Source of the DNA: Candidatus Aenigmatarchaeota archaeon | Lineage (GTDB): Archaea > Aenigmatarchaeota > Aenigmatarchaeia > JACPZZ01 | Direction: 5' to 3' | Assembly (NCBI GenBank): GCA_043806535.1 | Contig: JAZDGV010000100.1 | Coordinates: 1 to 31,869, forward strand | DNA: 31,869 nucleotides | In this document: positions 2,259-29,936 of the stretch, piece after piece | How the letters are laid out: each line of letters starts with the position of its first letter | Position numbering within the stretch: position 1 is the first letter of the stretch | Made by a program: the position numbers and the translations under genes | The notes under the pieces: model-generated | Told to the model about the DNA's origin: nothing | The model's database searches: none | What the model saw: the letters and a program-made list of their open reading frames with translations, nothing else

Positions 2259-4320
2259 AAAGAATTTGAAATTCGGCGTCAGCGAGAATATGGTGAATTG
2301 CATCGCGATGCTGCTGATTTGGCTGTTCATTCTGCAGTTTTTCAAACCCGATTTGATTCTCTCCGACACGACTGTGAGCGGCGGAGATACAGGCTCGCAC
2401 AACTACCTTGTCAACTATATGAAAAACTACCTCATCCCTCACGGAAAGGTGATTGGCTGGAGCCCGGATTGGTACGCGGGTTTTCCGATATTCCAATTCT
2501 ATTTTTTCCTGCCTTATCTTATGGCGGCGCTGCTCTCATTCGCAATGCCGCTGAACATCGCCTTCAAGATAATCACGGTTCTTGGGACATTCCTCCTGCC
2601 GGCAGCGGCATTTCTTTGTATGAAAGCAATGCGCTTCAAGTTCCCGGTTCCGATACTGGCAGCCGCATTCACCCTGCCGTTTCTTTTCATGGAGGCAAAT
2701 TCCATGTGGGGAGGGAACATACCGAGCACCCTTGCCGGAGAATTTTCATACAGTCTCAGCATGGCCGTTATGGTGGTTTTCATAGGATTCGTTTACAGGG
2801 GAGTAGAGACAAAGAAGTATATTCACATCAATTCTGTCCTTTTCCTCCTTGTAGGTCTTACGCATATATACACTACGATTGCCGCTGCCGTTTCATCGTT
2901 GTTCTTTTTAATCGAAGGCGATAGAAAAAGGATTTTGAAAAACGTGAAATACCTCTCAAAAGTCTACATCCTCGCATTTCTTCTCCTCGGTCTCTGGATG
3001 GTGCCGGTGCTTTTCAATCTTGGTTACAGGACAAAATTTGATTACTCATGGGGAATTAGCGGAATCAAGGAAGTTCTCCCCGACATACTTATTCCGTTTC
3101 TCTTGCTGTCGCTCTTCGGGGTTTATAAGGCGGTCAAGAACCGTGAAAGGGGGATAATTTACATTCTTTTCCTGTGCATCGCTTCCCTCCTGCTGTATAC
3201 GACGGCTGTGTTTGCGGGGCTGACTGACATAAGATTCATCCCATTCGTACAGTTTTTTCCTATGCTCATAGCCGCATACGGCTTCGACGAACTGACAAAA
3301 AGAATCGGGATGAAAAAAATCCTGGTCTTTATAGCGCTTTTTTCCGTGCTTTTCTGGGTCAACATTCACGTGACTTTCATAGAATCGTGGATAAAGTGGA
3401 ACTACGAGGGGTTTGAGCCAAAAGCCGCATGGGGGCAGTTCAAGGGCATCAACGACTATCTTGCGTCGCTTCCGTATGGAAGAGTTGTCCATGAGTTTTC
3501 GAGCAGCCATAACAAATTCGGCACGCCAAGGGCGTTCGAAGACATCCCGTTGTTCTCAGGCAAGCCCGTGCTTGAAGGGTTGAACATAGAATCTGCCGTG
3601 ACCTCCCCCTTTGTGTTCTGGATACAATCTGAGATATCGGAAACTCCCACGTGCCCCCTTCCAAGAATGAGATGTTCCTTTTTTGATGTAAAAAACGCGA
3701 CAGCGCACCTGAAACTTTTCAACGTAAAATACATTGTCGCGACATCGGAAAAGCTGAAGAGACGGCTTGTGAACAACACCGATTTCGTTTTTTTGAAAGC
3801 GTTTGAGGAGATAGAGGTATACGAGCTGAATTACGCACAAAGTTACGTCGAAGCCCTCAAGTACTGGCCGGTATCCCATACGATGGAAGGTTGGAAAGAA
3901 CTTTCCTTGGAATGGTTCAAGAATGCGGACGGATTGGAAGTTCCGATTGTCTTTGTCGGCAGCGAGGATGAAAAATCCAGATTCGATTCGTCGTACGCTC
4001 CGGGAACGCCGGTAGAGAACAATTGCAGCATTCAGGAAAAGATATCGAATGAGGAAATACGCATCGCGACAAATTGCATAGGAAAACCACTGTTGGTGAA
4101 AGTCCCGTATTTTCCGAGCTGGAAAGTGGAGGGCGCGGAAAAAACGTATCTTGCATCTCCGGCTTTCATGATAGTGGTGCCAAATGAAGAAAACGTCAGG
4201 ATTTTTTACGGCGACAGCTATTACGACATCCTTGGAAAAGCCCTGACGGCGTTGGGGATTGCAACTGTCATATTGTACTGGAAGTCGAAAAAAGCCTCAA
4301 GGTTCTTGGACGGATTGTGA
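2251..4320 (+). CDS. Multi-pass membrane protein, 6-pyruvoyl-tetrahydropterin synthase-related / GT-C-like glycosyltransferase family
   Basis: GGDTGSH, WSPDWYAGFPIFQFY and WGGNIPSTLAGEFSY motifs, about 10 TM segments and a C-terminal soluble domain. Start reassigned to GTG 2251 (ORF track gives 2185, overlapping the upstream gene). Confidence 0.75.
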   Translation: MHKKNLKFGVSENMVNCIAMLLIWLFILQFFKPDLILSDTTVSGGDTGSHNYLVNYMKNYLIPHGKVIGWSPDWYAGFPIFQFYFFLPYLMAALLSFAMPLNIAFKIITVLGTFLLPAAAFLCMKAMRFKFPVPILAAAFTLPFLFMEANSMWGGNIPSTLAGEFSYSLSMAVMVVFIGFVYRGVETKKYIHINSVLFLLVGLTHIYTTIAAAVSSLFFLIEGDRKRILKNVKYLSKVYILAFLLLGLWMVPVLFNLGYRTKFDYSWGISGIKEVLPDILIPFLLLSLFGVYKAVKNRERGIIYILFLCIASLLLYTTAVFAGLTDIRFIPFVQFFPMLIAAYGFDELTKRIGMKKILVFIALFSVLFWVNIHVTFIESWIKWNYEGFEPKAAWGQFKGINDYLASLPYGRVVHEFSSSHNKFGTPRAFEDIPLFSGKPVLEGLNIESAVTSPFVFWIQSEISETPTCPLPRMRCSFFDVKNATAHLKLFNVKYIVATSEKLKRRLVNNTDFVFLKAFEEIEVYELNYAQSYVEALKYWPVSHTMEGWKELSLEWFKNADGLEVPIVFVGSEDEKSRFDSSYAPGTPVENNCSIQEKISNEEIRIATNCIGKPLLVKVPYFPSWKVEGAEKTYLASPAFMIVVPNEENVRIFYGDSYYDILGKALTALGIATVILYWKSKKASRFLDGL

Positions 4321-10599: not shown

Positions 10600-10643
10600 T
10601 TTGTCACCTATAGCCTTTGATGTTGGTAATCTGAAACATGCGA

Positions 10644-10693
10644 GCAACTAGAAGCAGACACGCTGTCTGCTTCGGTCTGGCGCTTGTTTCTAC
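10644..10693 (+). repeat. REP-like palindromic element, family B
   Basis: GCAACTA-GAAGCAGACA-cgc-TGTCTGCTTC-GGTCTGG; perfect 10-bp stem, related to copies at 13342, 21293 and 22573. Confidence 0.7.
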
Positions 10694-10837
10694 TGGTTCA
10701 TGCCTGTTATGAGAATGAGAACAAAGATTAAAATACTTTCCCCTTCTCCGATGTGCAAGAAACGAAGTTTAAATCGGGTCCAATGCGCTATAATGGATTT
10801 ATATGCGGTTTTCCAACTTAATCGAGAAGAGATTGAT

Positions 10838-12640
10838 ATGAAGGTCAAAAACAAGTGGGTTCCGGACACATCCGTGCTGGTTGGAAGGATTTTGAGCAAA
10901 CTGGTGCAGAACGGCAGCGTGGAGGGGGAAATAATAATACCGGCCATGGTCGTGGACGAGCTCCAGGCGCAAGCAAGCAAATCCAAGGAAACCGGTTTTG
11001 AAGGGTTGGAAGAGATCAAAGCTGTGCGCGACCTCGCTAAGAAGCACAACATAGAGCTCAAGTTCATCGGGCGCAGGCCGACAATGGAAGAGATAATGCT
11101 TGCGAAGAAGGGCAGGATAGACGCTTTGATCAGGGATGTGGCAAAGGAGAACAAAGCCGTGCTAATAACCGCAGACTATGTGCAGGCGCTTGTCGCTGAA
11201 GCCGAGGGGATTTCGGTGCAGCACATTCGGAAGGAGACTGTGAAGCGCCCGGCAAAGCTTGAAAAATATTTTGACAAGGAAACCTTGTCCGTCCATCTGA
11301 AAGCAAACGTAATCCCGGTAGCAAAGCGCGGAAACCCCGGAAACATAAGGCTTGTAAAGCTCGGGGAGCCGTTGAGCGAGGATGAGATAGAAGACATAAT
11401 CAAGGAAATAATGGAGATGGCGAGGACAAGCGAAAATTCATTCTTTGAAATAGGCTCCCACGGCGCGATGGTCATACAGCTGGAAAATTACAGAATCGCC
11501 ATTGCGAGACCGCCATTCAGCGACGGGCTTGAGGTAACAGCTGTAAGGCCCATAGCAAAGCTCACATTGAACGATTACAAGCTTTCGGAGAAACTCAGGA
11601 AGCGCCTGGAAGATCGCGCGGAAGGAATATTGATATGCGGCCCGCCCGGCTCGGGAAAATCGACTTTTGCCGCGTCCCTCGCGGAATTCTACCTGTCTTT
11701 GGAAAAGATTGTCAAGACTATGGAAAGCCCGAGAGACCTGCAAGTTCCGGATGAAGTGACCCAATATGGGCCTCTCAACGGCAGTTTTGAAAAGACCGCA
11801 GACATACTGCTTCTTGTGCGGCCGGATTACACAATATTCGACGAAGTAAGAAAGACAAAGGACTTTGAGGTATTCAGCGACATGCGGCTCGCCGGCATAG
11901 GAATGGTAGGCGTCGTGCACGCGGCTAAAGCCATCGACGCTGTTCAGAGGTTCATGGGACGCGTCGAGCTTGGAATGATAACCAGCGTGCTCGACACGAT
12001 AATCTTCATAAAAGACGGAAAGGTTGAGAACGTCTTTGATCTATCCCTTACAGTAAGGGTGCCGACAGGAATGCATGAAGCTGACCTCGCGCGGCCTTTG
12101 ATAGAAGTCAAAGACTTTGAAACTGGCGAATGCAAGTACGAAATCTACACTTACGGCGAGGAGAATGTCGTTGTGCCTGTGACAAAACGGGATGAAGAGC
12201 CTATAACAAAACTTGCAAAGGAGCGGGTTCTGCAGGAAATACGGGAATACGACAGGAATGCCAAAGTTGAAATAAGCGGCAACAAGGCTGTGGTGATAGT
12301 GGACAATGACGCGATTGCGAGGCTTATCGGAAAAGCCGGGAAGAATATCTCAGAGCTTGAGCAGAGGCTCGGAATATCAATAGACGTCGAGCCGGCTGTA
12401 AAGAGCTTCGGTCAAGCTGTAAGTCACAGCGTGAACGAATCTGGAGCATATTTGATACTCGAATTTGACAAGAAGCTTTCCGGAAAACTTGTTTCTGTCT
12501 GGGCAGGCGACGAATTCCTGTTCTCCGCAACAATCGGTGCGAGCGGGGGCATCAAGGTTTCCAAGAAATCCGAGATAGGCACGAAGCTCTTAAGGGCTGT
12601 CGTAAAGAAGCATGCCATACGGTCTTATATGCAGATTTAA
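10838..12640 (+). CDS. PINc/VirB11-like ATPase with C-terminal KH domain (PINA/MJ1533-type)
   Basis: N-terminal PIN domain (VPDTSVL, LITAD), Walker A GPPGSGKST, LLVRPDYTIFDEVR, KH motif LIGKAGKNI. Start reassigned to ATG 10838. Confidence 0.92.
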   Translation: MKVKNKWVPDTSVLVGRILSKLVQNGSVEGEIIIPAMVVDELQAQASKSKETGFEGLEEIKAVRDLAKKHNIELKFIGRRPTMEEIMLAKKGRIDALIRDVAKENKAVLITADYVQALVAEAEGISVQHIRKETVKRPAKLEKYFDKETLSVHLKANVIPVAKRGNPGNIRLVKLGEPLSEDEIEDIIKEIMEMARTSENSFFEIGSHGAMVIQLENYRIAIARPPFSDGLEVTAVRPIAKLTLNDYKLSEKLRKRLEDRAEGILICGPPGSGKSTFAASLAEFYLSLEKIVKTMESPRDLQVPDEVTQYGPLNGSFEKTADILLLVRPDYTIFDEVRKTKDFEVFSDMRLAGIGMVGVVHAAKAIDAVQRFMGRVELGMITSVLDTIIFIKDGKVENVFDLSLTVRVPTGMHEADLARPLIEVKDFETGECKYEIYTYGEENVVVPVTKRDEEPITKLAKERVLQEIREYDRNAKVEISGNKAVVIVDNDAIARLIGKAGKNISELEQRLGISIDVEPAVKSFGQAVSHSVNESGAYLILEFDKKLSGKLVSVWAGDEFLFSATIGASGGIKVSKKSEIGTKLLRAVVKKHAIRSYMQI

Positions 12641-12666
12641 GTTTCAAGCCGGCAAATGATAATATT

Positions 12667-13167
12667 ATGGAAATGCGCGACTTTTCCGGCCAAAAACTGA
12701 TGATTGTGGCGCTACTGGTTATTTTGATGTTTTTTGTAGGAGGCTCCATAACAGGCTACACGACATCGCTGATAAATCTGCAAAAAGAACTTTCAAACGC
12801 CACGGCCTGCGCCGATTTGTCAAAGAGTTTGGAAAGCGCAAGCGCGGATTTTGAAGCATGCGCTGAAACTCTCAATTCGACTTCTTCGCTGTTCACCGGC
12901 TGCAAGTCTAACCTGCTGACAGCTAACGCTGATACCATAAGACTGACCGCGGAAAACATAATCTACGAAAAAAACGTCACGGAACTCGGACGCGATGCAG
13001 ACAAGTGGAGCGATGCGTTCAAGAACGCGGCAAATGACGTTTGCTGCATAAGGAGGGCCGCTAACACGGACGCCGGGATAAGGTACTTCTATCTTTCCAA
13101 CGGTAAGACTTATTGCACAAATTCCGCAGACGCCTCGCTTGGAACGGTTGAGATAGCCTGCCCGTGA
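12667..13167 (+). CDS. Membrane-anchored hypothetical protein with coiled-coil and Cys-rich C-terminus
   Basis: N-terminal hydrophobic helix, helical middle region, C-terminal CC...C...C. Confidence 0.65.
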   Translation: MEMRDFSGQKLMIVALLVILMFFVGGSITGYTTSLINLQKELSNATACADLSKSLESASADFEACAETLNSTSSLFTGCKSNLLTANADTIRLTAENIIYEKNVTELGRDADKWSDAFKNAANDVCCIRRAANTDAGIRYFYLSNGKTYCTNSADASLGTVEIACP

Positions 13168-13241
13168 AATATTAATCTCTTTCTCGTGAGTAATCTTTAG
13201 GCGCAGACAGGAGAAGGCAAGCGCCTCCTTTGCCTGCGAAT

Positions 13242-13450
13242 GGGCCCGTAGCATAACCTGGATAATGCGGCGGCTTCCTAAGCCGACGATTGTGGGTTCA
13301 AACTACCCCTTTCGGCGCAAACTGAAACACAGGCGAAAACAGAAGCAGACAAATGTCTGCTTCAGTCTGACACTGTGTTTCGAGCTGTAACGAAAGCGGT
13401 AAGGTATCGGAAAGAAACTACGATAGGGTATGAAATTCCCACCGGGCCCG
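13242..13450 (+). tRNA. tRNA-Arg(CCT) with a 134-nt intron in the T-loop (59/60)
   Basis: Exons 13242-13302 and 13437-13450; acceptor stem GGGCCCG/CGGGCCC; A20; anticodon CCT at 13277-13279; strict BHB at the junctions. Confidence 0.92.
13303..13436 (+). other. BHB tRNA intron (59/60): family A element with a nested family B hairpin
   Basis: BHB formed by GGG/CCC, bulge AT|T, central TTCA/TGAA, bulge AA|C and TACCC/GGGTA. Family B stem at 13342-13363. Confidence 0.88.
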
Positions 13451-13511
13451 CCTTCTAACCAAGTTCGGAAAGAAAATATATACGGAAAATAAACGATTAT
13501 ATGTGGAATCG

Positions 13512-16500
13512 ATGAAAAGGACTTTGGCTGCGGTATTTCTAGCGCTCATTGCGATGGCTGTCTCTGCGACGAGCTTGGGATGGAGCGCAACAAAGGAGTT
13601 TAACGTAACCAACGCTCTCTATGTCAATTGGACCAACGCAGACGGCATGGGTCTGTATGCGATAAACATATCGATAGGGAACAATGCGACATACGACATT
13701 GTCGTGAACATAACAAACTCGACCAAGCTGATAAACAATTCGTTCTCGATAACAGCCAATTTCTCTGTGAGAAATGTGACCGGTTGGTCCGAGCAGGTTT
13801 CCGTGCCCGGCATGGGAACGCAGAACGTGTCGCTGATTTTCAACTATACCGGCCTGAGAGCCGGAAGATACGTGGGAACGTTTATAATCGCCAATGCATC
13901 AACCGCAAGCGAATACGCCAGTGTGAATGTCACGCTTGACATCTCGCTGACACTGAACGAAACAACGATGGACTATGAGAGCTTCTTTGGCAGACTTTCA
14001 TCGCCCGACCCGTATGAAAGATATTTCTTCAACGCGAGCTCCGGCGACTCGATAAACATACAAATCAGCACAACGCCGTTGTACCTTTTCCTTTTCGACC
14101 AGTCCGGCATCGTTGATATGAACGTTTCAAACACCACTCAATACCAGAACAGGTCGATTTCTTTCCTTACGCGCGGATACAACCAGTATTATGAACTCAG
14201 GGTCTACAACGCCTCAATTAGGGATTTCAACGGCTTCATCCGGCTCGGAACATTGAACACAAGCAGAAGATTCCTGGATTTTGGCTCTGTCAACACGACA
14301 TCTGCGACAGGACATTCAAATACGACCACCTACGATTTGAACAACACAAAACCGATAAACTTGGAAATGGTGAGAGAGTCCTGGCAGATGTATCTCAACA
14401 AGAGATATACGAACTTGGTAAACGCTTCCAATTTCACGGTTCTCGTTTCCAAAAATTACCAGAAGCTCGAGGCTGTGGTGGAATGGAGAAACGCGACAGC
14501 CGATTTCAACATGACCATATACAACTCCTCGTTCCAGCCGATCTCAGGCTATGCCAAAAGAAACCTGAGCAACGTTCCCGGCGTTGCGAAATCCCATGTG
14601 GTGGTTGAAAAGCAGTTCGACGAGTTCAACAAGACATGGATTGTGTCTGTTGTTGGAACGCACGGCGTTGAATACAACGTCACGATAAAATCGTTCATCG
14701 ATGCAAGCTGGATAAACAGCAGCTTCGGGAATTATCTGGGATACTATGTCATAAACGAGACGCAGAATTCATCGACTGTAAGCCTTAATATGACGCCTCC
14801 CGCGTGGCTCATCGACGGGCTTTACAACGGCTCTATCTCTTATGGTTATTCTGAGGCGAAGACGGAAATTCCATTCGGCATAAATGTCACAGGACCGATG
14901 CTCGTCGTCAACAACACGCTCGACATACTCAATTTCGCTGTCACGGACAATCTCGGCGCCAACAAGACAGTCAATTTCGGTTTCTTGATAAACAACACAG
15001 GCAGCTATGATTTGTATCTCGGCGATTACAACACGACGTCGTTGAACTTCTCCGACCATTCGATATGGTTCAACTACTCCTTCCAGAATCCCGTGCCTGC
15101 AGGCTCGTCCTCAATGCTTAATGTGCGATTCAACCTGACAACGCTGTCTTTCAACTCGGATGAAAGCGTTTACCTTGGATGGATTCTGCTCAACTCGACA
15201 AACGCGCATCCTTACAACGCGTTTAGAATAAACATGACATTCAACCTCACAAACAAGCTGAACTTCTTTGTTTACAACGTCTCGAACTACACTGGCAGCA
15301 ATTGGATAAGGCTGCAAAGCACGACGAACAACTCTTACATCAATGTCACCGTAAACATCACTTTCCAGAACGGGAGCTTTGTGCCAAACTTGAACCCGTC
15401 GAACTTCAGCGTATGGATGCAGAACACATTCGTGTATGAAGGCTCCAATTACACCTACAACGTCACTGATATGAATGTTACAGCTGTCCATACCAACGCA
15501 GGAGTTTACAAGTACTACGTGCTCAATGTGTCTGTCCCCTCAAGCGCGTTCGGGGGGAATTTCACAGTCTACGCCAGCGCAAGGGATGCGCCGGGCGGAT
15601 TTGCGAATTACGGGGCAGACAAATTCAGCTACTTGTATGTCAACAAGAGCCTGATGACCATAGACCTGACAAACGGGACCAGCGACGCGCCGACATTCTA
15701 TGCGACAGGGGATTATGACGTCAATATGACTGTTTTCAACCAAGGCGCGGAGCCTGCAACTGATGTCAACGTTTCAGGTGCCGCGTCCGGCTCGTGCTCC
15801 ATAAAGACTGGATACATGGAAGGGTTTTACATAGGAAACATCAGCTCATACTCAAGCTATTCCAACAGCACCATATGGAAACTGAGCATAGTCGGGAATG
15901 GGACTTGCACATTCGCGGTTGTTGGAAATTCGCCTCGCGGCGCTTGGCTGCTGAACGACACCATTGATTTCGGGTATGTTGGAGGATACCCTGCTCCTCC
16001 ATCAGGCTCGTCATCAGGAACGGGCGGGTCGGGCGAGAGCGCAATGAAACTGGAAATATTCACGAACAAAGCCAGCTACCTTAGATTTGAGGCGGCCGTG
16101 ATAACGTTCAACATCACTTCGACAGGAGCCGCTGTAAGCGGCGCCACGATAAGCTACAATATCACCGACTCGTCGGACAACAACCTCGTGTCAAGCGCAT
16201 GCTTGACAGGTTCGGACGGAAAATGCGTTGTCACGCACAACTTGACATCGGCTACGACCGGGGAATACAGAGTCGTCGCGAGAGCGTCCAAGACAGGCTT
16301 TTCCTCCTACTCTGCGACGAAAAGCTTCAGATTTTTCATGACCTCGGCTCAGATAACCTATTACAGCAGCTATGTCTCAGTTCTGCAGGGCTCAAAAAAC
16401 ACAACGGAAGTCAATGTAAAAAACAACGGCTCATTGCCAGTCGTTTTGAGACTGAAAATAACAAATATAACGGAAAGCTGGATTAAAACAACGCCGAGCC

Positions 16501-17177
16501 AGATTACAGTCGCGCAGGATGTGACAAGCACTTTCATTGTCGAGATTACCGCTCCTCTGAATGCCACGATAGGGAAGTATTATGCAATAATAGGCGTTCA
16601 GAACGATTCCTATTTCGACACGAGAAGCGCGCTTGTATTGGTTTTCCCGACAGATGCGACCAAGGAGCAAATATCCAGGTTTATTGCGGACTATTTGAGC
16701 GTCCTAAATTCGGTGTCCGAAAGGTTGAATTCGTCGAAGCTGCTGTTCCAGAACAATTCGAACATAATCACAGCCGAAAGCATGGCTAACACCGCCTTCC
16801 TTGAATATAGGGAAGCCGTCTCGGCGCTTGCGAGCGGCAATTACATAAAGGCTAACGAAAAAATCACAGAGGCGAAGAGGCTCGCGGACTTGGCGCAATC
16901 GCTTATCGCACAGACGGAAAAGGCAGGCGAGAAATTTTCCTTCGACCTGGTTTTGATTGTTGGAGCGATAATCGTGCTTGTTGGAGGCGTTGGGGCGTTG
17001 GCGTACATGCTCATGCCGCCCCCCGGCTATTCGCCCAGCGCCGGTTATGTCCATGCTGTGCAGAACGCAGACGCATTCGCAAAAATCAAGGACGAAATAT
17101 CCAAACTGATCGGAAAGGTGCTTGAATTCTTCAAAAAAATCACAACAAAGAAGCAAGAGGACTATGTCAGATGGTAA
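13512..17177 (+). CDS. Large surface glycoprotein (S-layer/adhesin candidate)
   Basis: Signal peptide, roughly 75 N-x-S/T sequons by manual count, Pro/Gly/Ser linker, helical region and a C-terminal TM helix. Start taken at ATG 13512. Confidence 0.8.
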   Translation: MKRTLAAVFLALIAMAVSATSLGWSATKEFNVTNALYVNWTNADGMGLYAINISIGNNATYDIVVNITNSTKLINNSFSITANFSVRNVTGWSEQVSVPGMGTQNVSLIFNYTGLRAGRYVGTFIIANASTASEYASVNVTLDISLTLNETTMDYESFFGRLSSPDPYERYFFNASSGDSINIQISTTPLYLFLFDQSGIVDMNVSNTTQYQNRSISFLTRGYNQYYELRVYNASIRDFNGFIRLGTLNTSRRFLDFGSVNTTSATGHSNTTTYDLNNTKPINLEMVRESWQMYLNKRYTNLVNASNFTVLVSKNYQKLEAVVEWRNATADFNMTIYNSSFQPISGYAKRNLSNVPGVAKSHVVVEKQFDEFNKTWIVSVVGTHGVEYNVTIKSFIDASWINSSFGNYLGYYVINETQNSSTVSLNMTPPAWLIDGLYNGSISYGYSEAKTEIPFGINVTGPMLVVNNTLDILNFAVTDNLGANKTVNFGFLINNTGSYDLYLGDYNTTSLNFSDHSIWFNYSFQNPVPAGSSSMLNVRFNLTTLSFNSDESVYLGWILLNSTNAHPYNAFRINMTFNLTNKLNFFVYNVSNYTGSNWIRLQSTTNNSYINVTVNITFQNGSFVPNLNPSNFSVWMQNTFVYEGSNYTYNVTDMNVTAVHTNAGVYKYYVLNVSVPSSAFGGNFTVYASARDAPGGFANYGADKFSYLYVNKSLMTIDLTNGTSDAPTFYATGDYDVNMTVFNQGAEPATDVNVSGAASGSCSIKTGYMEGFYIGNISSYSSYSNSTIWKLSIVGNGTCTFAVVGNSPRGAWLLNDTIDFGYVGGYPAPPSGSSSGTGGSGESAMKLEIFTNKASYLRFEAAVITFNITSTGAAVSGATISYNITDSSDNNLVSSACLTGSDGKCVVTHNLTSATTGEYRVVARASKTGFSSYSATKSFRFFMTSAQITYYSSYVSVLQGSKNTTEVNVKNNGSLPVVLRLKITNITESWIKTTPSQITVAQDVTSTFIVEITAPLNATIGKYYAIIGVQNDSYFDTRSALVLVFPTDATKEQISRFIADYLSVLNSVSERLNSSKLLFQNNSNIITAESMANTAFLEYREAVSALASGNYIKANEKITEAKRLADLAQSLIAQTEKAGEKFSFDLVLIVGAIIVLVGGVGALAYMLMPPPGYSPSAGYVHAVQNADAFAKIKDEISKLIGKVLEFFKKITTKKQEDYVRW

Positions 17178-17230
17178 TTTCTGCGAGGTTTAAATGCCTG
17201 CGCAACGAATGATTAAATTCTCGTGAATTT

Positions 17231-17602
17231 TTGTTTTTGGCGGTCAAAATGGCAAAATACATCTACAACAATTCGATAAAGGAGAAGGCGAAGGCGCTCT
17301 TTTTCGGGCATCGGATTCATGAAAAAATCGGCAGCAGGATAAAGCGCATTCCGGTTGAACGCATCGATATGAAAACCCCTGTCAGCGAAGTAAAAAAACA
17401 GCTGGCGACGTTCGTTTCAACCGCATTCGCGCTGACAGCGGCATTCTTCTGGAACGACGCGATAAGGGCGATGATAACTTCTTTTATACCGTACCAAGCC
17501 GGGAATTGGCCTTATTTGATGTGGTCTGCCGTGATTGTCACTCTGATTGCGGTGGTTGTCACAGCGCTGATTGCCAAAGTGCTTGGCGGGGCAGAGAAAT
17601 AA
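17231..17602 (+). CDS. Small membrane protein, DUF5654-like
   Basis: AFALTAAFFWNDAI and YLMWSAVIVTLIAV helices; the true start may be downstream (17249 or later). Confidence 0.7.
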   Translation: MFLAVKMAKYIYNNSIKEKAKALFFGHRIHEKIGSRIKRIPVERIDMKTPVSEVKKQLATFVSTAFALTAAFFWNDAIRAMITSFIPYQAGNWPYLMWSAVIVTLIAVVVTALIAKVLGGAEK

Positions 17603-17607
17603 TCCTG

Positions 17608-19464
17608 TCACATTCTCTCTATCGGCTGCACGCCAATGAGTTCAAGCGCATTCTTTAGCACGTCCGCGAAGCGGGCGACCAGTCGAAGCCTGAACGCGCG
17701 CGCGTTTTTTTCCGCGTTGAGAACCGGGCAGAACTGGTAGAATTTGTTGAAATTCGCGCAGATTTGATAGGCGTACTTGCACATCTCCTGCGGCGACAAG
17801 GTTTCCGCGGATTTCTTGACAACTATCGGGAAATAGAACAAACTTTTCAAAAGCTGCTTCTCAACGTCCGTGACGTTTTCAAAATCCGCTTTGCCGGGCG
17901 GACCTTTTGATTTTTCGAGTATTCTCCTCGCCCGCGCATATGCGTACTGCAAATATGAAGCCGTATTGCCATCGAGCCTGAGGGAATCGTCTATGTCAAA
18001 GACTATGATCTTGTCCCTGTCTATTTTTGTGAGTTCGTAACGGAGCGTCGATGCCGCTATTGATCCGGATGTCTTTCTCAGCCAAGCGTCGTTCTCTGTT
18101 GGGTTTCTTTTCTTTGTCTCGTCGTAAGCTTTCTCCGAAATCTTCTCAATGACCGTATCTACGTTGACAAAGAGCCCTTTGCGGCCGGACATGTGTATTA
18201 TTTCGGAATCTATAGGGACTCCAAGCGATTCCGCGGTCTTCTTGCTGAGCGAAACAACCTCGTAATCGTAGTGCGTGTAATTTTTCTCCCCGGAAATCAT
18301 CTTCAACGCGGTCGCAACAACGTCCTGCTCATAAGACTGCCTGACGTCGACAACGTTTATCGACATGTCCGCGTTTCCGAAGGGCTGGGACGGCTTTGCT
18401 TTCTTTTTATTGGAAGTTCTCCAGAGAATCTTCTTGTTCGGTTGCGTGACAAACTTTTCATAGTAAAAATCTTTCATCAAGCCGTGCTTCCACATCGCGT
18501 ATGCTATGTCCTTTCCCGCATACAAAACGGTCCCGTCCGACCTCACAAGAGCCTTATCGGGGTTTTCCATTCCCTTGAACTCGTCCAGATCGGAGAGCTT
18601 CAGCATCCAACAACCGGCATTCTTCCCGGCGCCAAGATAAACAAGGTTCTTTTTTTTCAGCTTCTCAAATGACTTTTCCCAGAGTTTCGACCTTAGTATG
18701 CAAGTCTCGGTTGTCAGCACGTCAAAGAATATTCCCAGACGCCAGAGCGTCTCAAGCTGGGCGGATAAGACTTTGTCAACGATTTTTTCGCTGAATTCCG
18801 ACAATTCGTTGCCGCCCTTCTCTATGGATTTTATCACCTCAAGCCTCTTGCCTTTCAGCTCCGGATTTTTTTCGTACACCCTGTTGACAGAAACGTAGAC
18901 GTCGTCGCCGCAGTACTGGTCGAACTTTTTCTCCGTTTTTATCGGATAACCCAAGGACTTGAAGCCGACGATTATATCCGCCACCTGCGTCCCGCTGTCG
19001 TCTATATAGTTCAAAACCTGGACGCCATGGCCGACAAACTTGAGAATCCTTGCGATTGAGTCTCCGAGGCATGAGTTTCTCGCGTGCCCTATGTGTATCG
19101 CCTTGTTCGGGTTTATGCTGGTGTGCTCCACGAGGATTTTTTTCTTCTTTGTCCGGTATTTGCCATATTCTTGCTTTTGCTTTTCCATCTCGTCCAAGAC
19201 CGCTTTGGCGAATTTTTGCGGGTTGAGAAAGAAGTTCAAATAACCCGACTTTGCTTCGACGCGCTCTATAATCGAGTTTTCCGGTATTTTTGTTCCTGCG
19301 GCAATCTCTTCCGCCATCTTCTGCGGGCTTTGTTTCTGGCGCTTCGCAAGGTCAAAGCATATCGTGGACGCCAAGTCCCCAAAGCCCGGTTTCGGAATCT
19401 CTATGGTCTCTTCCAATCCCTCCAAGCCGACAAGTTTGCTTATTTCCGAGTACAGGGAAATCAT
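17608..19464 (-). CDS. argS: Arginine--tRNA ligase
   Basis: GFGDLAS, EHTSINPNKAIHIGHARN (HIGH), MSGRKG, GNTASYLQYAYAR motifs. Start reassigned to ATG 19464. Confidence 0.97.
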   Translation of the reverse strand: MISLYSEISKLVGLEGLEETIEIPKPGFGDLASTICFDLAKRQKQSPQKMAEEIAAGTKIPENSIIERVEAKSGYLNFFLNPQKFAKAVLDEMEKQKQEYGKYRTKKKKILVEHTSINPNKAIHIGHARNSCLGDSIARILKFVGHGVQVLNYIDDSGTQVADIIVGFKSLGYPIKTEKKFDQYCGDDVYVSVNRVYEKNPELKGKRLEVIKSIEKGGNELSEFSEKIVDKVLSAQLETLWRLGIFFDVLTTETCILRSKLWEKSFEKLKKKNLVYLGAGKNAGCWMLKLSDLDEFKGMENPDKALVRSDGTVLYAGKDIAYAMWKHGLMKDFYYEKFVTQPNKKILWRTSNKKKAKPSQPFGNADMSINVVDVRQSYEQDVVATALKMISGEKNYTHYDYEVVSLSKKTAESLGVPIDSEIIHMSGRKGLFVNVDTVIEKISEKAYDETKKRNPTENDAWLRKTSGSIAASTLRYELTKIDRDKIIVFDIDDSLRLDGNTASYLQYAYARARRILEKSKGPPGKADFENVTDVEKQLLKSLFYFPIVVKKSAETLSPQEMCKYAYQICANFNKFYQFCPVLNAEKNARAFRLRLVARFADVLKNALELIGVQPIERM

Positions 19465-19551
19465 GGCATCACAAAGACATAATCCTCGGGCGGATATAAA
19501 AATTCGGGAAGCGCTTGGCAACCGCAGAAATCGTGCGCCCTATGGGCGTTT

Positions 19552-19983
19552 TTAGGTCTTTTGGAACTTCATTGCTCGCTGGACGACATGCTGCTCGGCT
19601 TCCTTTATGCCGAACGCCTTGGACAAGTAGTCTACGGCATCGCTCACATTGAACTGCTTGCAGGAAAATACGTCTATGGCGACAAACCCCTTCTCTGGAT
19701 AGGTGTGGACGGATATATGAGATTCTGCAATCATCACAAAACCTGAGATTCCCCAGTCCTCTGGCTTCAATCCGATGTATGGAATCACATAAGGCGTGAT
19801 TATCTTTGTCATCCCTATTATTCCGGGGAGCTCGTCGAGAACTTTGAACACGCGCATCATGTCAGAGAGCTTTTCCTTGTCGCATTGGTACCCGTCAATA
19901 GTGAGATGCGGGCCATAACCTGCCAATTTTTCCGGCTTCTGCTCTGATTCCAGGCTTCTACCAAAAGAAATTTTTTGTTGCAT
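19552..19983 (-). CDS. speD: Pyruvoyl-dependent S-adenosylmethionine decarboxylase proenzyme
   Basis: GPHLTIDGY, GISGFVMIAE|SHISVHTYPE (self-cleavage site) and DVFSCK motifs. Confidence 0.9.
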   Translation of the reverse strand: MQQKISFGRSLESEQKPEKLAGYGPHLTIDGYQCDKEKLSDMMRVFKVLDELPGIIGMTKIITPYVIPYIGLKPEDWGISGFVMIAESHISVHTYPEKGFVAIDVFSCKQFNVSDAVDYLSKAFGIKEAEQHVVQRAMKFQKT

Positions 19984-20091
19984 TTATTTTTCACTGATAA
20001 TATTATTTTGTGCGTTATTCTTTTAAATATTTATCCCTTGCCGAATTTTTTGCAAAAAGATTTCAAAAAAATTCTTTCCGAGAAATATTTT

Positions 20092-21042
20092 TTATTTCCT
20101 GATGAAGTCGACGAGCGTGCACGCTTTGCATTTTTTCGACGAACTCGGCTCGCCGCAGCTCTCGCAGGCCAGAATTTCACTCTCTTCAACGTTTTTTCCG
20201 GCGGCTGCGTGACTCAAAATCGAATCAAATGCCTCCACCAAGCCGAATTTTATCCCCGGGTGGTTCGTTTCGAGGGTGTTGAGAAAGTCTCTGACCTCAA
20301 AACGCATCCCCGACGCATACGGGCACTCTCCCCAGTAGTTGTTTATGCCGCCGAGCATCGCGTAAAGCGCTATTTCTTTCTCCGGAATCAGCCTGAGCGG
20401 CTTTATTCTCTGAACAAAACCGGTTTTCTGTTGTTTCCGGCTTGGAATCTGCGAATTTGACCTGAAAAGCTTGTTTGTGTCGCCCTTGAGGCAGTTTATC
20501 AGGAAAGTCTGAGCCTCATCGTCGAGGTTGTGGCCTGTGCACACTTTTGTTGCGCCAAGCTCTCTCGCAGATTTGTTTAGCGCATACCTCCTGAACACTC
20601 CGCACCATGTGCAGGCGCCGCCAAGCCCGCTCTTGAGAGGCGTTCGCCCGAGTTTCCTGATTATTCCGTCCAAACTCATCCCGAAGACGCGCTTGAAGCT
20701 TACGACGTGATGCTCCACGCCAAGCGACTTTGCCAGCGCTTTGGCATTTTCCAAGCTTCTGTTCCTATAGCCTTTGATTCCTTCGTCTATGGTTAGCGCA
20801 AATATCCTGACATCCTTCCTCTTGGAGAATGTTTTTGCCATCAAATAGAGCGCCGTGGAAGAGTCCTTGCCGCCGCTCAGCGCAACCGCTATGGCGTCGC
20901 CGGGAGCAACGAGGTTGCCCTGTCGAATGTGTTTCTTGACTTTTTTCTCGAACTGGTCGCAAAAACACGCCTTGCAGTAGAAATTTCCCTCGTTTCTGCG
21001 GTAATAGACGGCTTCTTTGCCGCACGAGCACTTCATTTTCAT
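20092..21042 (-). CDS. ttuA: tRNA 2-thiolation protein, TtuA/NcsA/Ctu1 family
   Basis: PP-loop SGGKDS, CTWCG, GHNLDD, ECPY, and N- and C-terminal zinc fingers. Confidence 0.9.
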   Translation of the reverse strand: MKMKCSCGKEAVYYRRNEGNFYCKACFCDQFEKKVKKHIRQGNLVAPGDAIAVALSGGKDSSTALYLMAKTFSKRKDVRIFALTIDEGIKGYRNRSLENAKALAKSLGVEHHVVSFKRVFGMSLDGIIRKLGRTPLKSGLGGACTWCGVFRRYALNKSARELGATKVCTGHNLDDEAQTFLINCLKGDTNKLFRSNSQIPSRKQQKTGFVQRIKPLRLIPEKEIALYAMLGGINNYWGECPYASGMRFEVRDFLNTLETNHPGIKFGLVEAFDSILSHAAAGKNVEESEILACESCGEPSSSKKCKACTLVDFIRK

Positions 21043-21236
21043 CCCCCGGAAACGACCCTGAGAACATCGACTTTGTCGGATTTTTTCAGCTTTGTCTGCT
21101 CCGGAACTATGTTTCCGTTGACGGATACGATGACCGTCTCCGGGTTCATGCCAATCTTCTGGAGCAACTCTGCGACTGTCGCTGCGCTGACTGTCGCGGT
21201 TTTGGCGCGCCCGGGCAGAAGGATTTTAAGCCTCAT
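21039..21236 (-). CDS. ThiS/MoaD/SAMP ubiquitin-like sulfur carrier (TtuB-like)
   Basis: About 65 aa, VSVNG motif, C-terminal VVSGG; stop overlaps the ttuA start. Start reassigned to ATG 21236. Confidence 0.9.
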   Translation of the reverse strand: MRLKILLPGRAKTATVSAATVAELLQKIGMNPETVIVSVNGNIVPEQTKLKKSDKVDVLRVVSGG

Positions 21237-21292
21237 AGCATCACTATATCTTTGAACAAATAATTTAAAATCAGCGTAGACATTGCATAGTT

Positions 21293-21364
21293 GCAACTAG
21301 AAACAGACTATCGGTCTGTTTCAGCTGCGTGCCAACAGACGCATACCCATGGTATGCGTCAGCT
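21293..21364 (+). repeat. REP-like family B element followed by a second 10-bp hairpin
   Basis: GCAACTA-GAAACAGAC-tatcg-GTCTGTTTC, then GACGCATACC-cat-GGTATGCGTC (21338-21360). Confidence 0.7.
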
Positions 21365-21385
21365 GACGAGTTCACACGTATGAAC

Positions 21386-21522
21386 GCCGGGATCGCATAA
21401 CCAGGTAGTGCGCCAGTCTCGAATAAGCCTTTCTTTTGAAAAAGAAAGCCTTAATGGAAAGAAAACCTGCGAGAGAACTGGTGTGGCTCTGCCACTTATG
21501 GGTTCAAATCCCATTCCCGGCG
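21386..21522 (+). tRNA. tRNA-Ser(CGA) with a 52-nt intron at 37/38 (21424-21475)
   Basis: Acceptor stem GCCGGGA/TCCCGGC, G73, long variable arm, anticodon stem CCAGT/ACTGG, BHB central helix CTCG/CGAG. Confidence 0.93.
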
Positions 21523-21523
21523 C

Positions 21524-22294
21524 TTACCACATCTTCTTCAGAATCTCCTTTGACGTCTTTGCGAAAGCCCGTCCGGGGAAGAAGATTTCGAAGGTTATCG
21601 TGTCATCGTACCCGATTTCTTTAATTTCTTTGGCAACGGCTTTGAAATCTATCTTTCCAAACCCGATTCCGAGATGCTCGTCCCTCATTCCCCCGTTGTC
21701 GTGGAAGTGCAAGTGACGAATCTTCTTGCCGAAAGTCTTGATATACCTCTTAACTTCTCCCATACCACCTTGTATGAAAGCGTGCCCGACGTCAAAGTTG
21801 ACAGCAACTTCTGTGTTCTTCACGACATATTTGAACTCTTCCAAAGAATTGTTTGGCGTGTTTTCAAGAACCAGAAGCACACCCTTTGAGTGGGCTTGGA
21901 GCGTTTTTATGCTGTCTATATAATTGTGCAGTGCCTGGTCCCTGGATTTCTTGTTGTTTGCAGCCACGCCCCTGATTTCAAGGTGAACTGTGAGTTTTTT
22001 CGCGCCAATCTCGCTTGCGATGTCTATTACCGCTTTAATCTGGTTTATCCACCTCCTTCTTACCAGCTGGTTCAAACTCCCCAGCTCTGCCCACCACGGC
22101 GCATGACCAAGTGAGAACATGTTGTATTTTTTGAGCGATTTCAGTATGGCCGATTTGTTCTTTCTGAGAAGTTCGGGCGTTCCCATAGGCTCTTCGATCG
22201 CTATTTCGGCGTAGTCGAACCCCATCTTTGCGACAGTCCGTATTTCCTTCACGATGTCGGCTGACGGGTTCGTTATGTTACCGAATTTCGGCAT
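21524..22294 (-). CDS. Sugar phosphate isomerase/epimerase (AP endonuclease 2 TIM-barrel family)
   Basis: GFDYAE, LVLEN, NFDVGHA, HLHFHDN..DEHL and ITFE metal-binding motifs. Confidence 0.85.
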   Translation of the reverse strand: MPKFGNITNPSADIVKEIRTVAKMGFDYAEIAIEEPMGTPELLRKNKSAILKSLKKYNMFSLGHAPWWAELGSLNQLVRRRWINQIKAVIDIASEIGAKKLTVHLEIRGVAANNKKSRDQALHNYIDSIKTLQAHSKGVLLVLENTPNNSLEEFKYVVKNTEVAVNFDVGHAFIQGGMGEVKRYIKTFGKKIRHLHFHDNGGMRDEHLGIGFGKIDFKAVAKEIKEIGYDDTITFEIFFPGRAFAKTSKEILKKMW

Positions 22295-22359
22295 AAGATG
22301 AGTTTATGAAATTATGGTTATTAATGACTGATGCCAAAACACAATATTATGGCTAAGAG

Positions 22360-22482
22360 GGGCCCATGGTCTAGTGGCTAGGACGCCACCCTCACAATAA
22401 GCCTTTCTTTTGAAAGAAAGGTTAATCGAAAGAAAATAGTATGGGAACGGTGGAGATTCCGGTTCGATTCCGGGTGGGCCCA
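22360..22482 (+). tRNA. tRNA-Val(CAC) with a 51-nt intron at 37/38 (22397-22447)
   Basis: Acceptor stem GGGCCCA/TGGGCCC, A73, anticodon stem CCACC/GGTGG, BHB central helix CTCA/TGGG with bulges CA|A and AA|C. Confidence 0.92.
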
Positions 22483-22484
22483 AG

Positions 22485-22533
22485 CTACCCTTTTCTTTGG
22501 TAAAGAAAAGAGGTAAGGTATCGGAAAAGAAAC
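22485..22533 (+). repeat. tRNA-3'-flanking hairpin element, family A
   Basis: CTACCCTTTTCTTTGGTAAAGAAAAGAGGTAAGGTATCGGAAAAGAAAC; 47/50 positions match the copy at 29712-29761. Confidence 0.85.
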
Positions 22534-22572
22534 AAACGAAAGGAAAGGTTAGTTGCTAAGGAGGTGCCGATT

Positions 22573-22595
22573 GAAGCACATCGAAGATGTGCTTC
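22573..22595 (+). repeat. REP-like family B variant hairpin
   Basis: GAAGCACATC-gaa-GATGTGCTTC followed by GGT; same outer arm as the other family B copies. Confidence 0.6.
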
Positions 22596-22616
22596 GGTTT
22601 GCGCTTTCCTCGCAAT

Positions 22617-22691: not shown

Positions 22692-22741
22692 CTCCCCTTT
22701 TCTTTAAAAAAGAAAAGTGGTAAGCTATCCCAAAAGAAAAC
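22692..22741 (+). repeat. tRNA-3'-flanking hairpin element, family A (diverged copy)
   Basis: CTCCCCTTTTCTTTAAAAAAGAAAAGTGGTAAGCTATCCCAAAAGAAAAC, starting 2 nt after tRNA-Val(TAC). Confidence 0.8.
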
Positions 22742-22788
22742 GTAGGAAGGGTTAGCTACTAAGGGAAACCAAAGGTTTCCCTCGTAGA

Positions 22789-22899
22789 GGGCTGGTAGAT
22801 CAACGGTAGATCGCCACATTGGCAACAACCCTTTTAAAAAAAGGGTTGATCGAAAAACCACGCTTGTGGAGGCTTCGGGTTCGAATCCCGACCAGTCCA
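22789..22899 (+). tRNA. tRNA-Ala(GGC) with a 39-nt intron at 37/38 (22825-22863)
   Basis: G3:U70 wobble in the acceptor stem, A73, anticodon stem CCACA/TGTGG, relaxed BHB (TTGG/CCAC). Confidence 0.9.
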
Positions 22900-29711: not shown

Positions 29712-29761
29712 GTTTCTTTTCCGATAACTTACCGCTTTTCTTTACCAAAGAAAAGGGGTAG
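29712..29761 (-). repeat. tRNA-3'-flanking hairpin element, family A
   Basis: Minus strand reads CTACCCCTTTTCTTTGGTAAAGAAAAGCGGTAAGTTATCGGAAAAGAAAC, starting 1 nt after the tRNA-Ile discriminator base. Confidence 0.85.
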
Positions 29762-29762
29762 A

Positions 29763-29892
29763 TGGGCTCGACCGGATTCGAACCGGTGACCCACGGCATT
29801 TACGCTCAGTGGCCTTATAAGACCGTCGCTCTATCCAGAAGCCACAGTTCCTTTGAACACATTTGGCTTGGACCAGGCTGAGCTACGAGCCC
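29763..29892 (-). tRNA. tRNA-Ile(TAT) with two non-canonical introns (D-loop 20a/21, 29833-29870; 38/39, 29798-29814)
   Basis: Spliced 75-nt cloverleaf GGGCTCG..AGCCTGGTCA..ACGGT-CTTATAA-GCCGT..CGAGCCC-A. Intron 1 BHB: CTGG/CTGG central helix plus AAGCCA/TGGCTT. Intron 2 relaxed BHB: TTAT/GTAA. Confidence 0.85.
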
Positions 29893-29922
29893 ATTGCACT
29901 AAGAATTAAAGCTACGCTGAAA

Positions 29923-29930
29923 CTTATAAA
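29923..29930 (-). promoter_or_regulatory. Putative TATA box of tRNA-Ile
   Basis: TTTATAAG on the minus strand about 30 nt upstream of the tRNA +1 position. Confidence 0.45.
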
Positions 29931-29936
29931 TTAAAC

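Follow-up and report, generated by a model that had tools for sequence, protein, structure and literature searches.

The 31,869-nucleotide stretch analysed here (the window) is contig JAZDGV010000100.1 of the Candidatus Aenigmatarchaeota archaeon assembly GCA_043806535.1, and it raises the question of whether a set of similar hairpins, dispersed through its non-coding DNA, represents mobile repeats or signals of the host. Our study followed up a first-pass annotation made from the sequence alone and suggests, on balance, that these hairpins, termed family B, are lineage-restricted, transposase-free foldback repeats that are mobile. The window is contig C100 of a metagenome-assembled genome (G000; 564 kb, 110 contigs, 48 % G+C, 66 % complete), and its arginyl-tRNA synthetase matched proteins named Candidatus Aenigmarchaeota/Aenigmatarchaeota. 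The window was compared with seven genomes of the sister genus, G001 and G002 among them, and with two syntenic contigs from close relatives, L004 and L005, whose arginyl-tRNA synthetase is 80-82 % identical to that of the window. Literature searches found no published account of hairpin family B.

The first-pass annotation had described four hairpins, all of which were recovered at the same positions (Table 1), each with RG on its 3' side, observed as GG or AG. Its further observations were also borne out: GCAACTA precedes two of the hairpins (10644-10650 and 21293-21299), one hairpin lies inside a tRNA intron, and the change from GAAGCAGAC to GAAACAGAC (A/G) is compensated on the opposite arm. 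It had not reported a fifth core hairpin in the window, outer helices (z-scores -4.9 to -6.9) that surround three of the four, or a wider stem vocabulary that includes GACACATACC, GACATACACC, GACGCATACC and GAATCAGACC.

A covariance model trained on 27 copies, which had been chosen as perfect hairpins, located ~62 sites in G000, and family B is hence dispersed rather than a handful of fixed stems. The consensus reads GAnRCAnAYC, a loop of 3-5 nt and GRTnTGYnTC, and nearly all sites have perfect stems, with only a handful imperfect. The hairpin pattern is far above chance: GAARCAGAC-N3-6-GTCTGYTTC had 26 matches in the genome against 0 for a reversed control, and perfect hairpins with a stem of at least 8 bp gave 227 records, compared with 43 after the genome had been shuffled (~five-fold). 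The covariation claimed for the stems was upheld, as 7 of the 10 pairs change on both sides, with a single G-U, in the 27-copy alignment, where the percentage paired follows by construction because the copies were preselected as perfect hairpins. Recurrent stems are limited in number (GAAACAGACC, GAAGCAGACC and the four additional types above), the loops are free to vary, and the 3' flanks read AGTCTGAC, AGCTGAC or AAATCAC.

Genome-wide, the 23-nt hairpin proved to be the apex of longer foldbacks built from modules of 16-18 nt, a period obtained from spacing counts. The 5' arms carry repeated units such as GAAACA-n-GCGCC-AAYT and the 3' arms units such as AGTCTGA-CGC-n-TGTTTC; position 7 has a conserved mismatch, and neighbouring modules are separated by a small internal loop, the junction consisting of a 1x1 mismatch and then a 4x5 internal loop. 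Counted conservatively, 22 or more of the 55 cores carry one to three outer modules, and array length ranges from 23 to ~150 nt.

Family B is confined to one taxonomic family. The covariance model matched all seven sister-genus genomes, at 4-13 sites each, and gave only two lone candidate matches in the other 113 genomes of the class. Density was highest in G000, and the sister-genus copies shown lie mostly in tRNA introns or directly upstream of tRNAs. Within G000, seven contig pairs are 85-95 % identical over 1-3 kb (C100/C110, C64/C65, C93/C106, C30/C97, C24/C107, C66/C108 and C85/C96), which indicates two related populations in one bin and allowed strain variants to be compared. A large number of B arrays are found no more than ~300 nt from a contig end (C50:272, C60:220, C88:222, C96:243, C22:245), and this suggests that the assembly breaks at B repeats and that the number of copies counted is a minimum.

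Comparison of orthologous loci revealed filled, empty and swapped alleles between strain variants and close relatives, and it is because presence or absence differs between close strains that family B behaves like small mobile repeats. The clearest case involves C110, which carries a 139-nt array exactly between the leader and tRNA +1 where the window has none, with no target duplication and a shared TATA-like box upstream. C106 and C93 differ by a 129-nt array; these two arrays are among the large intergenic indels between G000 contig pairs. C64 and C65 have two entirely different cassettes at one locus between identical flanks. The two-layer foldback at 10633-10690 is replaced in L005 by a different, fully compensated array and is missing from L004. 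The site upstream of tRNA-Ser holds just a short unrelated hairpin in L005, and the spacer upstream of tRNA-Val holds another B core in L005 and other B cores or none in metagenome contigs. In metagenome contigs from four runs, alignment was lost exactly over the B hairpins and other spacer forms were seen. Matches to the window sequence all came from DNA metagenomes of groundwater or freshwater, and a search of sequence runs found it in no RNA run.

Ribosomal operons from four relatives, whose uL2 proteins form one 90 %-identity cluster, showed the same turnover. Cassettes of ~90 nt are present or absent by genome at L3-L4, L23-L2, L2-S19 and p29-S17, where p29 is an RNase P protein subunit gene in a relative's operon, and empty spacers measure 10 nt. 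The spacer upstream of uS12 is 72, 276 or 300 nt long, corresponding to one, two or three hairpin-plus-linker units. The introns may also be mobile, as the homologue of the window's tRNA-Arg intron, which combines family-A and family-B hairpins, lies in the D-loop of tRNA-Val in L005 (3700-3950) and not in the tRNA-Arg of L005, with one additional module at its apex, and the tRNA-Val of the window has no intron. Homologous introns in the T-loop of one tRNA gene and the D-loop of another are evidence that introns move between tRNA genes.

The first-pass annotation had contrasted mobile hairpins with stems fixed at orthologous positions, and both patterns occur in part. Several sites are orthologous across species with stems kept by compensation: the hairpins upstream of EF-2 show three double changes and zero uncompensated ones, and those before L3 and at 10633-10690 show compensated changes only. 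Other sites are filled, empty or swapped, as described above.

Family-B copies are all non-coding and occupy pre-tRNA leaders, inter-tRNA spacers, tRNA introns and ribosomal-protein operon spacers. Crude gene calls plus tRNA hits placed a gene on either side of 46 arrays; the flanks were gene end/gene start in 35, start/start in 8 and end/end in 3, and at least one gene start lay beside 43. A conserved linker of 33 nt (P-linker), ending in AAGGTGAA, comes after roughly a dozen arrays and sets the ATG 37-40 nt from the hairpin; the linker end is a Shine-Dalgarno-like AAGGTGA (ribosome-binding site) 6-7 nt ahead of the ATG. A variant that sets the ATG 24 nt away follows five or six arrays. A second linker of 25 nt (T-linker; 13 copies genome-wide) abuts tRNA +1 or, in reverse orientation, the tRNA 3' end. 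The downstream proteins confirmed by Pfam comprise nine ribosomal proteins (uS12, uL3, uL23, uL29, uS17, uL6, uL10, eS28 and eL15), GluRS, RNA polymerase A' and a 43-aa TFIIB-type Zn ribbon; uS19 was identified through its orthologue and the remainder from N-termini only. Ribosomal proteins were enriched downstream (hypergeometric p ~1e-6 to 1e-7 with rough totals) in a test that took in 11 of them, two known by N-termini only.

In the window, the foldback at 10633-10690 lies 33 nt upstream of the minus-strand Zn-ribbon open reading frame. This is the gene served by the array, rather than the plus-strand PIN-ATPase gene, because its ribosome-binding site and ATG come after the array. The longest-reading-frame start of that PIN-ATPase-KH gene (10700-12640, +) is itself probably wrong, as the genes of relatives encode 600-615 aa and their alignment puts the start ~130 nt further downstream.

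The fixed spacing to start codons and tRNA +1 and the enrichment of translation genes downstream are also what would be seen if the hairpins were a host-functional RNA element, that is, a processing, stability or protein-binding signal under selection that had spread through selection and gene conversion rather than transposition. The compensated changes at orthologous sites and the near absence of decayed copies fit this explanation, as does the array before L3 at locus L042, which implies co-transcription. However, the same genes lack an array in close relatives, where the spacers are 10 nt, and the sister-genus uS12 has a plain promoter. Mismatches of the G-U and A-C kinds on the sense strand numbered 7 and 11 (few data), and without a sense-strand bias the pairing constraint looks equal on both strands; comparing minimum energies between the strands gave results too noisy for a strand test. 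In addition, an RNase III gene was found in none of the eight genomes of the taxonomic family and the module junctions show no bulge-helix-bulge. We regard a host RNA signal as a somewhat doubtful account of the family when taken by itself, and the mobile-repeat and host-functional readings can both hold in part.

Both of these readings involve arrays in RNA. We infer from promoter position, intron location and operon context that the arrays are transcribed, and the intronic copies in the window, L005 and the sister genus must be. In the window, a TATA-like box lies 30 nt upstream of +1 of the tRNA at 29763-29892. C110 has the same box and 30 nt, followed by the 139-nt array, a T-linker and then the tRNA; if the shared box is the promoter, the array in C110 is a 5' leader. 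Operon cassettes sit between cistrons that are only 3-13 nt apart in other genomes. The L3 array at L042 comes after a conserved stretch of non-coding DNA, and co-transcription is implied because no TATA-like box lies between that stretch and L3. In three genomes this conserved region, ~230 nt long, starts downstream of a TATA-like box (GATTATAAATGC) and precedes the L3 operon. It holds a family-A hairpin, had no match in Rfam and could represent a so far unrecognised gene for a small RNA that is co-transcribed with the L3 operon.

This arrangement also bears upon the possibility that the repeats act as DNA, either as an operator for a dimeric regulator or as a supercoil-driven cruciform near promoters. 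The lack of strand bias among mismatches and the equal folding of both strands suit a duplex or cruciform element, and the hairpin ends ~40 nt before the ATG beside an ATTTAY box at the usual place of a TATA box. Nevertheless, copies in tRNA introns and between tRNAs cannot be promoters, and at C110 the shared TATA-like box is upstream of the entire array. The half-sites covary perfectly, a requirement of base pairing but not of a dimeric binder, orthologous L3 sites do not preserve the A/T-rich part of the T-linker, and array length is highly variable. A DNA-level promoter element thus appears very improbable.

As the first-pass annotation had stated, no mobilising enzyme is visible in the window, and none was found in the rest of G000. 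Its proposed link to HUH or RAYT enzymes found no clear support. Y1_Tnp occurs in two of the seven sister-genus genomes and TnpB in six, with TnpB strongly expanded in G002 (14 hits), but the Y1 genes of G001 and G002 are flanked by unrelated hairpins (GATAGGG...CCCTATC and CCCCGCAC...GTGCGGGG). The Y1 family PF01797 was not found in the 66 %-complete G000. Among 18 TnpB loci, 15 had no B-type hairpin nearby. The other three were one gene in G001 (L049) bracketed by two B-type hairpins, one locus with the hairpins of tRNA genes, and one with a single upstream hairpin. The loop of the hairpins at L049 resembles that of the relatives' cassette hairpins, and this locus may serve as a lead only. 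The copies of the IS605-type element around it were too diverged for its ends to be defined.

These data relate to a third explanation, in which family B is a non-autonomous IS200/IS605 derivative, PATE- or REP-like, whose movement depends on a Y1 HUH transposase or RAYT acting in trans. Palindromic hairpins, one clean insertion without target duplication, the Y1_Tnp and TnpB genes of the sister genus and the bracketed TnpB of G001 would all accord with it. Set against this, neither Y1_Tnp nor TnpB was found in G000, the known Y1 elements carry hairpins of another kind, only 1 of 18 TnpB loci is bracketed on both sides, and insertion-sequence boundaries were not definable. We consider such a derivation unlikely.

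Returning to mobile, transposase-free repeats, the first-pass proposal of a non-autonomous mobile family survives in that the repeats are dispersed, covarying and polymorphic, and requires revision in that they are nested modular foldbacks with conserved linkers and not simple 23-nt hairpins. Several observations weigh against mobility. The best pairs of non-allelic copies are 90-95 % identical over 55-66 nt, and the lack of near-identical full-length copies argues against a recent burst. Perfect stems at old orthologous sites imply selection or arm-to-arm correction, neither of which a purely selfish element would need. Searches of G000 detected no Y1/HUH transposase, no TnpB and no reverse transcriptase, although the absence of these genes, like that of RNase III, is weak evidence because the genome is incomplete (66 %) and breaks at repeats. 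No common target sequence was shared across insertion events, and no consistent target or element end could be defined. Some operon junctions carry short repeats (TAAG, AAGGTG) that could represent microhomology and would fit recombination at the ribosome-binding site equally to transposition. Transcription, for its part, is deduced from the context given above.

The account that we propose for mobile repeats joins the observed architecture to a putative mode of spread. The unit is a palindromic module of 16-23 nt with the stem base GA...TC, and new modules appear at the apex of older hairpins to give the nested arrays. These travel with a short conserved P-linker or T-linker and occupy non-coding, probably transcribed spacers of highly expressed translation genes, so that pre-tRNA leaders, introns and intercistronic spacers would contain them as RNA hairpins. 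Spread may involve a trans-acting activity on folded single-stranded DNA, IS200/IS605-like or SMR-like and without target duplication, or alternatively ectopic recombination. Copies would persist because expression stays intact after insertion at such places, and those retained may act as stability or processing punctuation of polycistronic RNA. A bolder proposal, which strikes us as improbable, is that family B represents a self-propagating leader cassette, in which a foldback and a linker bringing a ribosome-binding site or abutting a tRNA end insert precisely at gene 5' boundaries and hairpin tips, with no known transposase or target duplication. It would since have been adopted as standard RNA punctuation of translation-gene transcripts in this DPANN lineage.

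A number of other candidates were rejected. An Rfam search of the window returned tRNA matches only, both at the gathering threshold and at E<=1, and hammerhead, K-turn, C/D-box and H/ACA motifs did not fit by eye. An RNase III processing site was discarded as the gene was not found in the family's eight genomes. A bulge-helix-bulge intron has two 3-nt bulges 4 bp apart, a geometry that differs from the module junction, and only copies inside tRNA genes are intronic. Intrinsic terminators were dismissed as no U-run occurs 3' of the hairpins. The T-linker is not a convincing promoter, as its A/T box, unconserved at the orthologous L3 sites, is just ~15 nt from tRNA +1, and a cruciform drawing the TATA box closer does not fit the distances at uS12. 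A classical miniature inverted-repeat element mobilised by a DDE transposase would share the foldback structure, yet the cleanest insertion has no target-site duplication. Neither RNase P RNA nor 16S rRNA was found in G000, which says little for an incomplete genome.

Other hairpin families share tRNA introns, trailers and operon spacers with family B throughout the genome. Their stems include CCCTTTTCTTT/AAAGAAAAGGG (family A), CGTCAAACC, TGTAAAACAC, ATGGAAATC and CACAAGRCA. A 69-nt family-A trailer after a tRNA in the window (29741-29762) is missing from C110, and family A is therefore also strain-polymorphic.

Table 1. Positions of hairpins, arrays, linkers and associated features (window coordinates unless a genome, contig or locus is named)
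Feature	Position	Strand	Details
Zn-ribbon open reading frame, TFIIB-type, free-standing, 43 aa	10471-10599	-	Pfam PF08271, E 3.4e-8; orthologue in L005
Two-layer foldback	10633-10690		Outer 10633-10650 paired with 10674-10690, core 10651-10673; fold -27.3 kcal/mol, z -4.9; opposite strand folds as well
Core hairpin	10651-10673		10-bp stem, loop CGC
tRNA-Arg T-loop intron, 134 nt	13303-13436	+	Exons read from sequence; family-A stem around family-B array; 13304-13401 fold -44.3 kcal/mol, z -6.9
Intronic family-B array	13324-13381	+	Outer 13324-13341 paired with 13364-13381, core 13342-13363
Core hairpin	13342-13363		9-bp stem, loop AAAT; within tRNA-Arg intron
12-bp palindrome TAGTTGCAACTA	21288-21299		5' boundary of several arrays; likewise in C22, C86
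Core hairpin, GAAACAGAC type	21300-21322		9-bp stem, 5-nt loop
Fifth core hairpin, GACGCATACC type	21338-21360		Covariance model 38.2 bits
T-linker, 25 nt, AGCTGAC...CGTATGAAC	21361-21385	+	Connects last hairpin to tRNA-Ser +1 (21386)
Hairpin in tRNA-tRNA spacer	22559-22610	+	Tip is core 22573-22595; fold -32.8 kcal/mol, z -6.1; tRNA-Val starts downstream at 22616
Core hairpin	22573-22595		10-bp stem, loop GAA
Empty site	29893-29936	-	Strain-variant C110 has 139-nt B array and T-linker between leader and tRNA +1
Other-family hairpins	21429-21448, 22402-22421, 22490-22510, 22697-22717, 22762-22782, 22826-22848, 29735-29755
Conserved region, ~230 nt	L007 (G000:C96) ~3400-3700; L042 7360-7600; L043 7330-7560		
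Y1 transposase genes	G001:C5:95358-95714; G002:C8:16637-16981		IS200/IS605-type

DPANN archaea are usually viewed as streamlined, yet in this lineage a family of palindromic repeats turns over at the strain level inside the most conserved operons (ribosomal proteins, tRNAs), where spacers have been lengthened from 10 to ~90 nt without breaking expression. Family B offers a natural system for studying how transposase-free palindromic repeats move in archaea, a problem unsolved for haloarchaeal SMRs, how one hairpin comes to nest in the tip of another, and whether RNA processing is influenced by leader hairpins where RNase III is missing. Assemblies are interrupted by the elements, which also make useful markers of strains.

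The closest described elements are the SMR-A and PATE repeats of Haloquadratum walsbyi, which are transposase-free, ~50-150 bp long and lack target duplication, with strain-specific insertions (PMC3119063). SMR-A inserts within palindromes of other elements and its mode of movement is unexplained (PMC3119063). The likeness to family B lies in prominent inverted or near-terminal palindromes, and insertion into palindromes parallels the nesting of B within B and of B within A. There is, however, no sequence relation, and family B is modular with its 16-18-nt period, is confined to start-side spacers of tRNA and translation genes with fixed spacing, and to tRNA introns, and has a DPANN host whose genome is smaller than 1 Mb. 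A link to IS605 ends is only a candidate.

Bacterial REPs and Correia and BOX elements are best seen as functional analogues. REP and BIME sequences are short extragenic palindromes in many copies, transcribed within operons, with both selfish and RNA-stability roles, and family B resembles them as a short extragenic palindrome with many, exclusively non-coding copies. REPs mostly occupy 3' ends and the space separating convergent genes, are marked by a conserved GTAG-type tetranucleotide and come with a cognate Y1 RAYT gene; these features were not seen for family B. The parallel with bacterial REPs drawn in the first-pass annotation thus fails on position, as family B sits at gene 5' sides with fixed spacing and its end/end placements are few. 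Small foldback or modular repeats near genes, co-transcribed and strain-polymorphic, also occur in Neisseria (Correia elements) and Streptococcus pneumoniae (BOX elements); the module number of BOX elements varies, and Correia elements duplicate a TA on insertion and are RNase III substrates. Family B differs in that nesting is apical and not tandem, and no RNase III was found in the genomes of its taxonomic family. Finally, the mobile tRNA introns of Thermoproteales are homologous introns at differing positions in different tRNAs, much as the T-loop intron of the window's tRNA-Arg is homologous to an intron that L005 carries in the tRNA-Val D-loop. In this archaeal lineage, however, the B module is cargo of the intron, and it is far commoner outside tRNA genes, where it has no splice motif.

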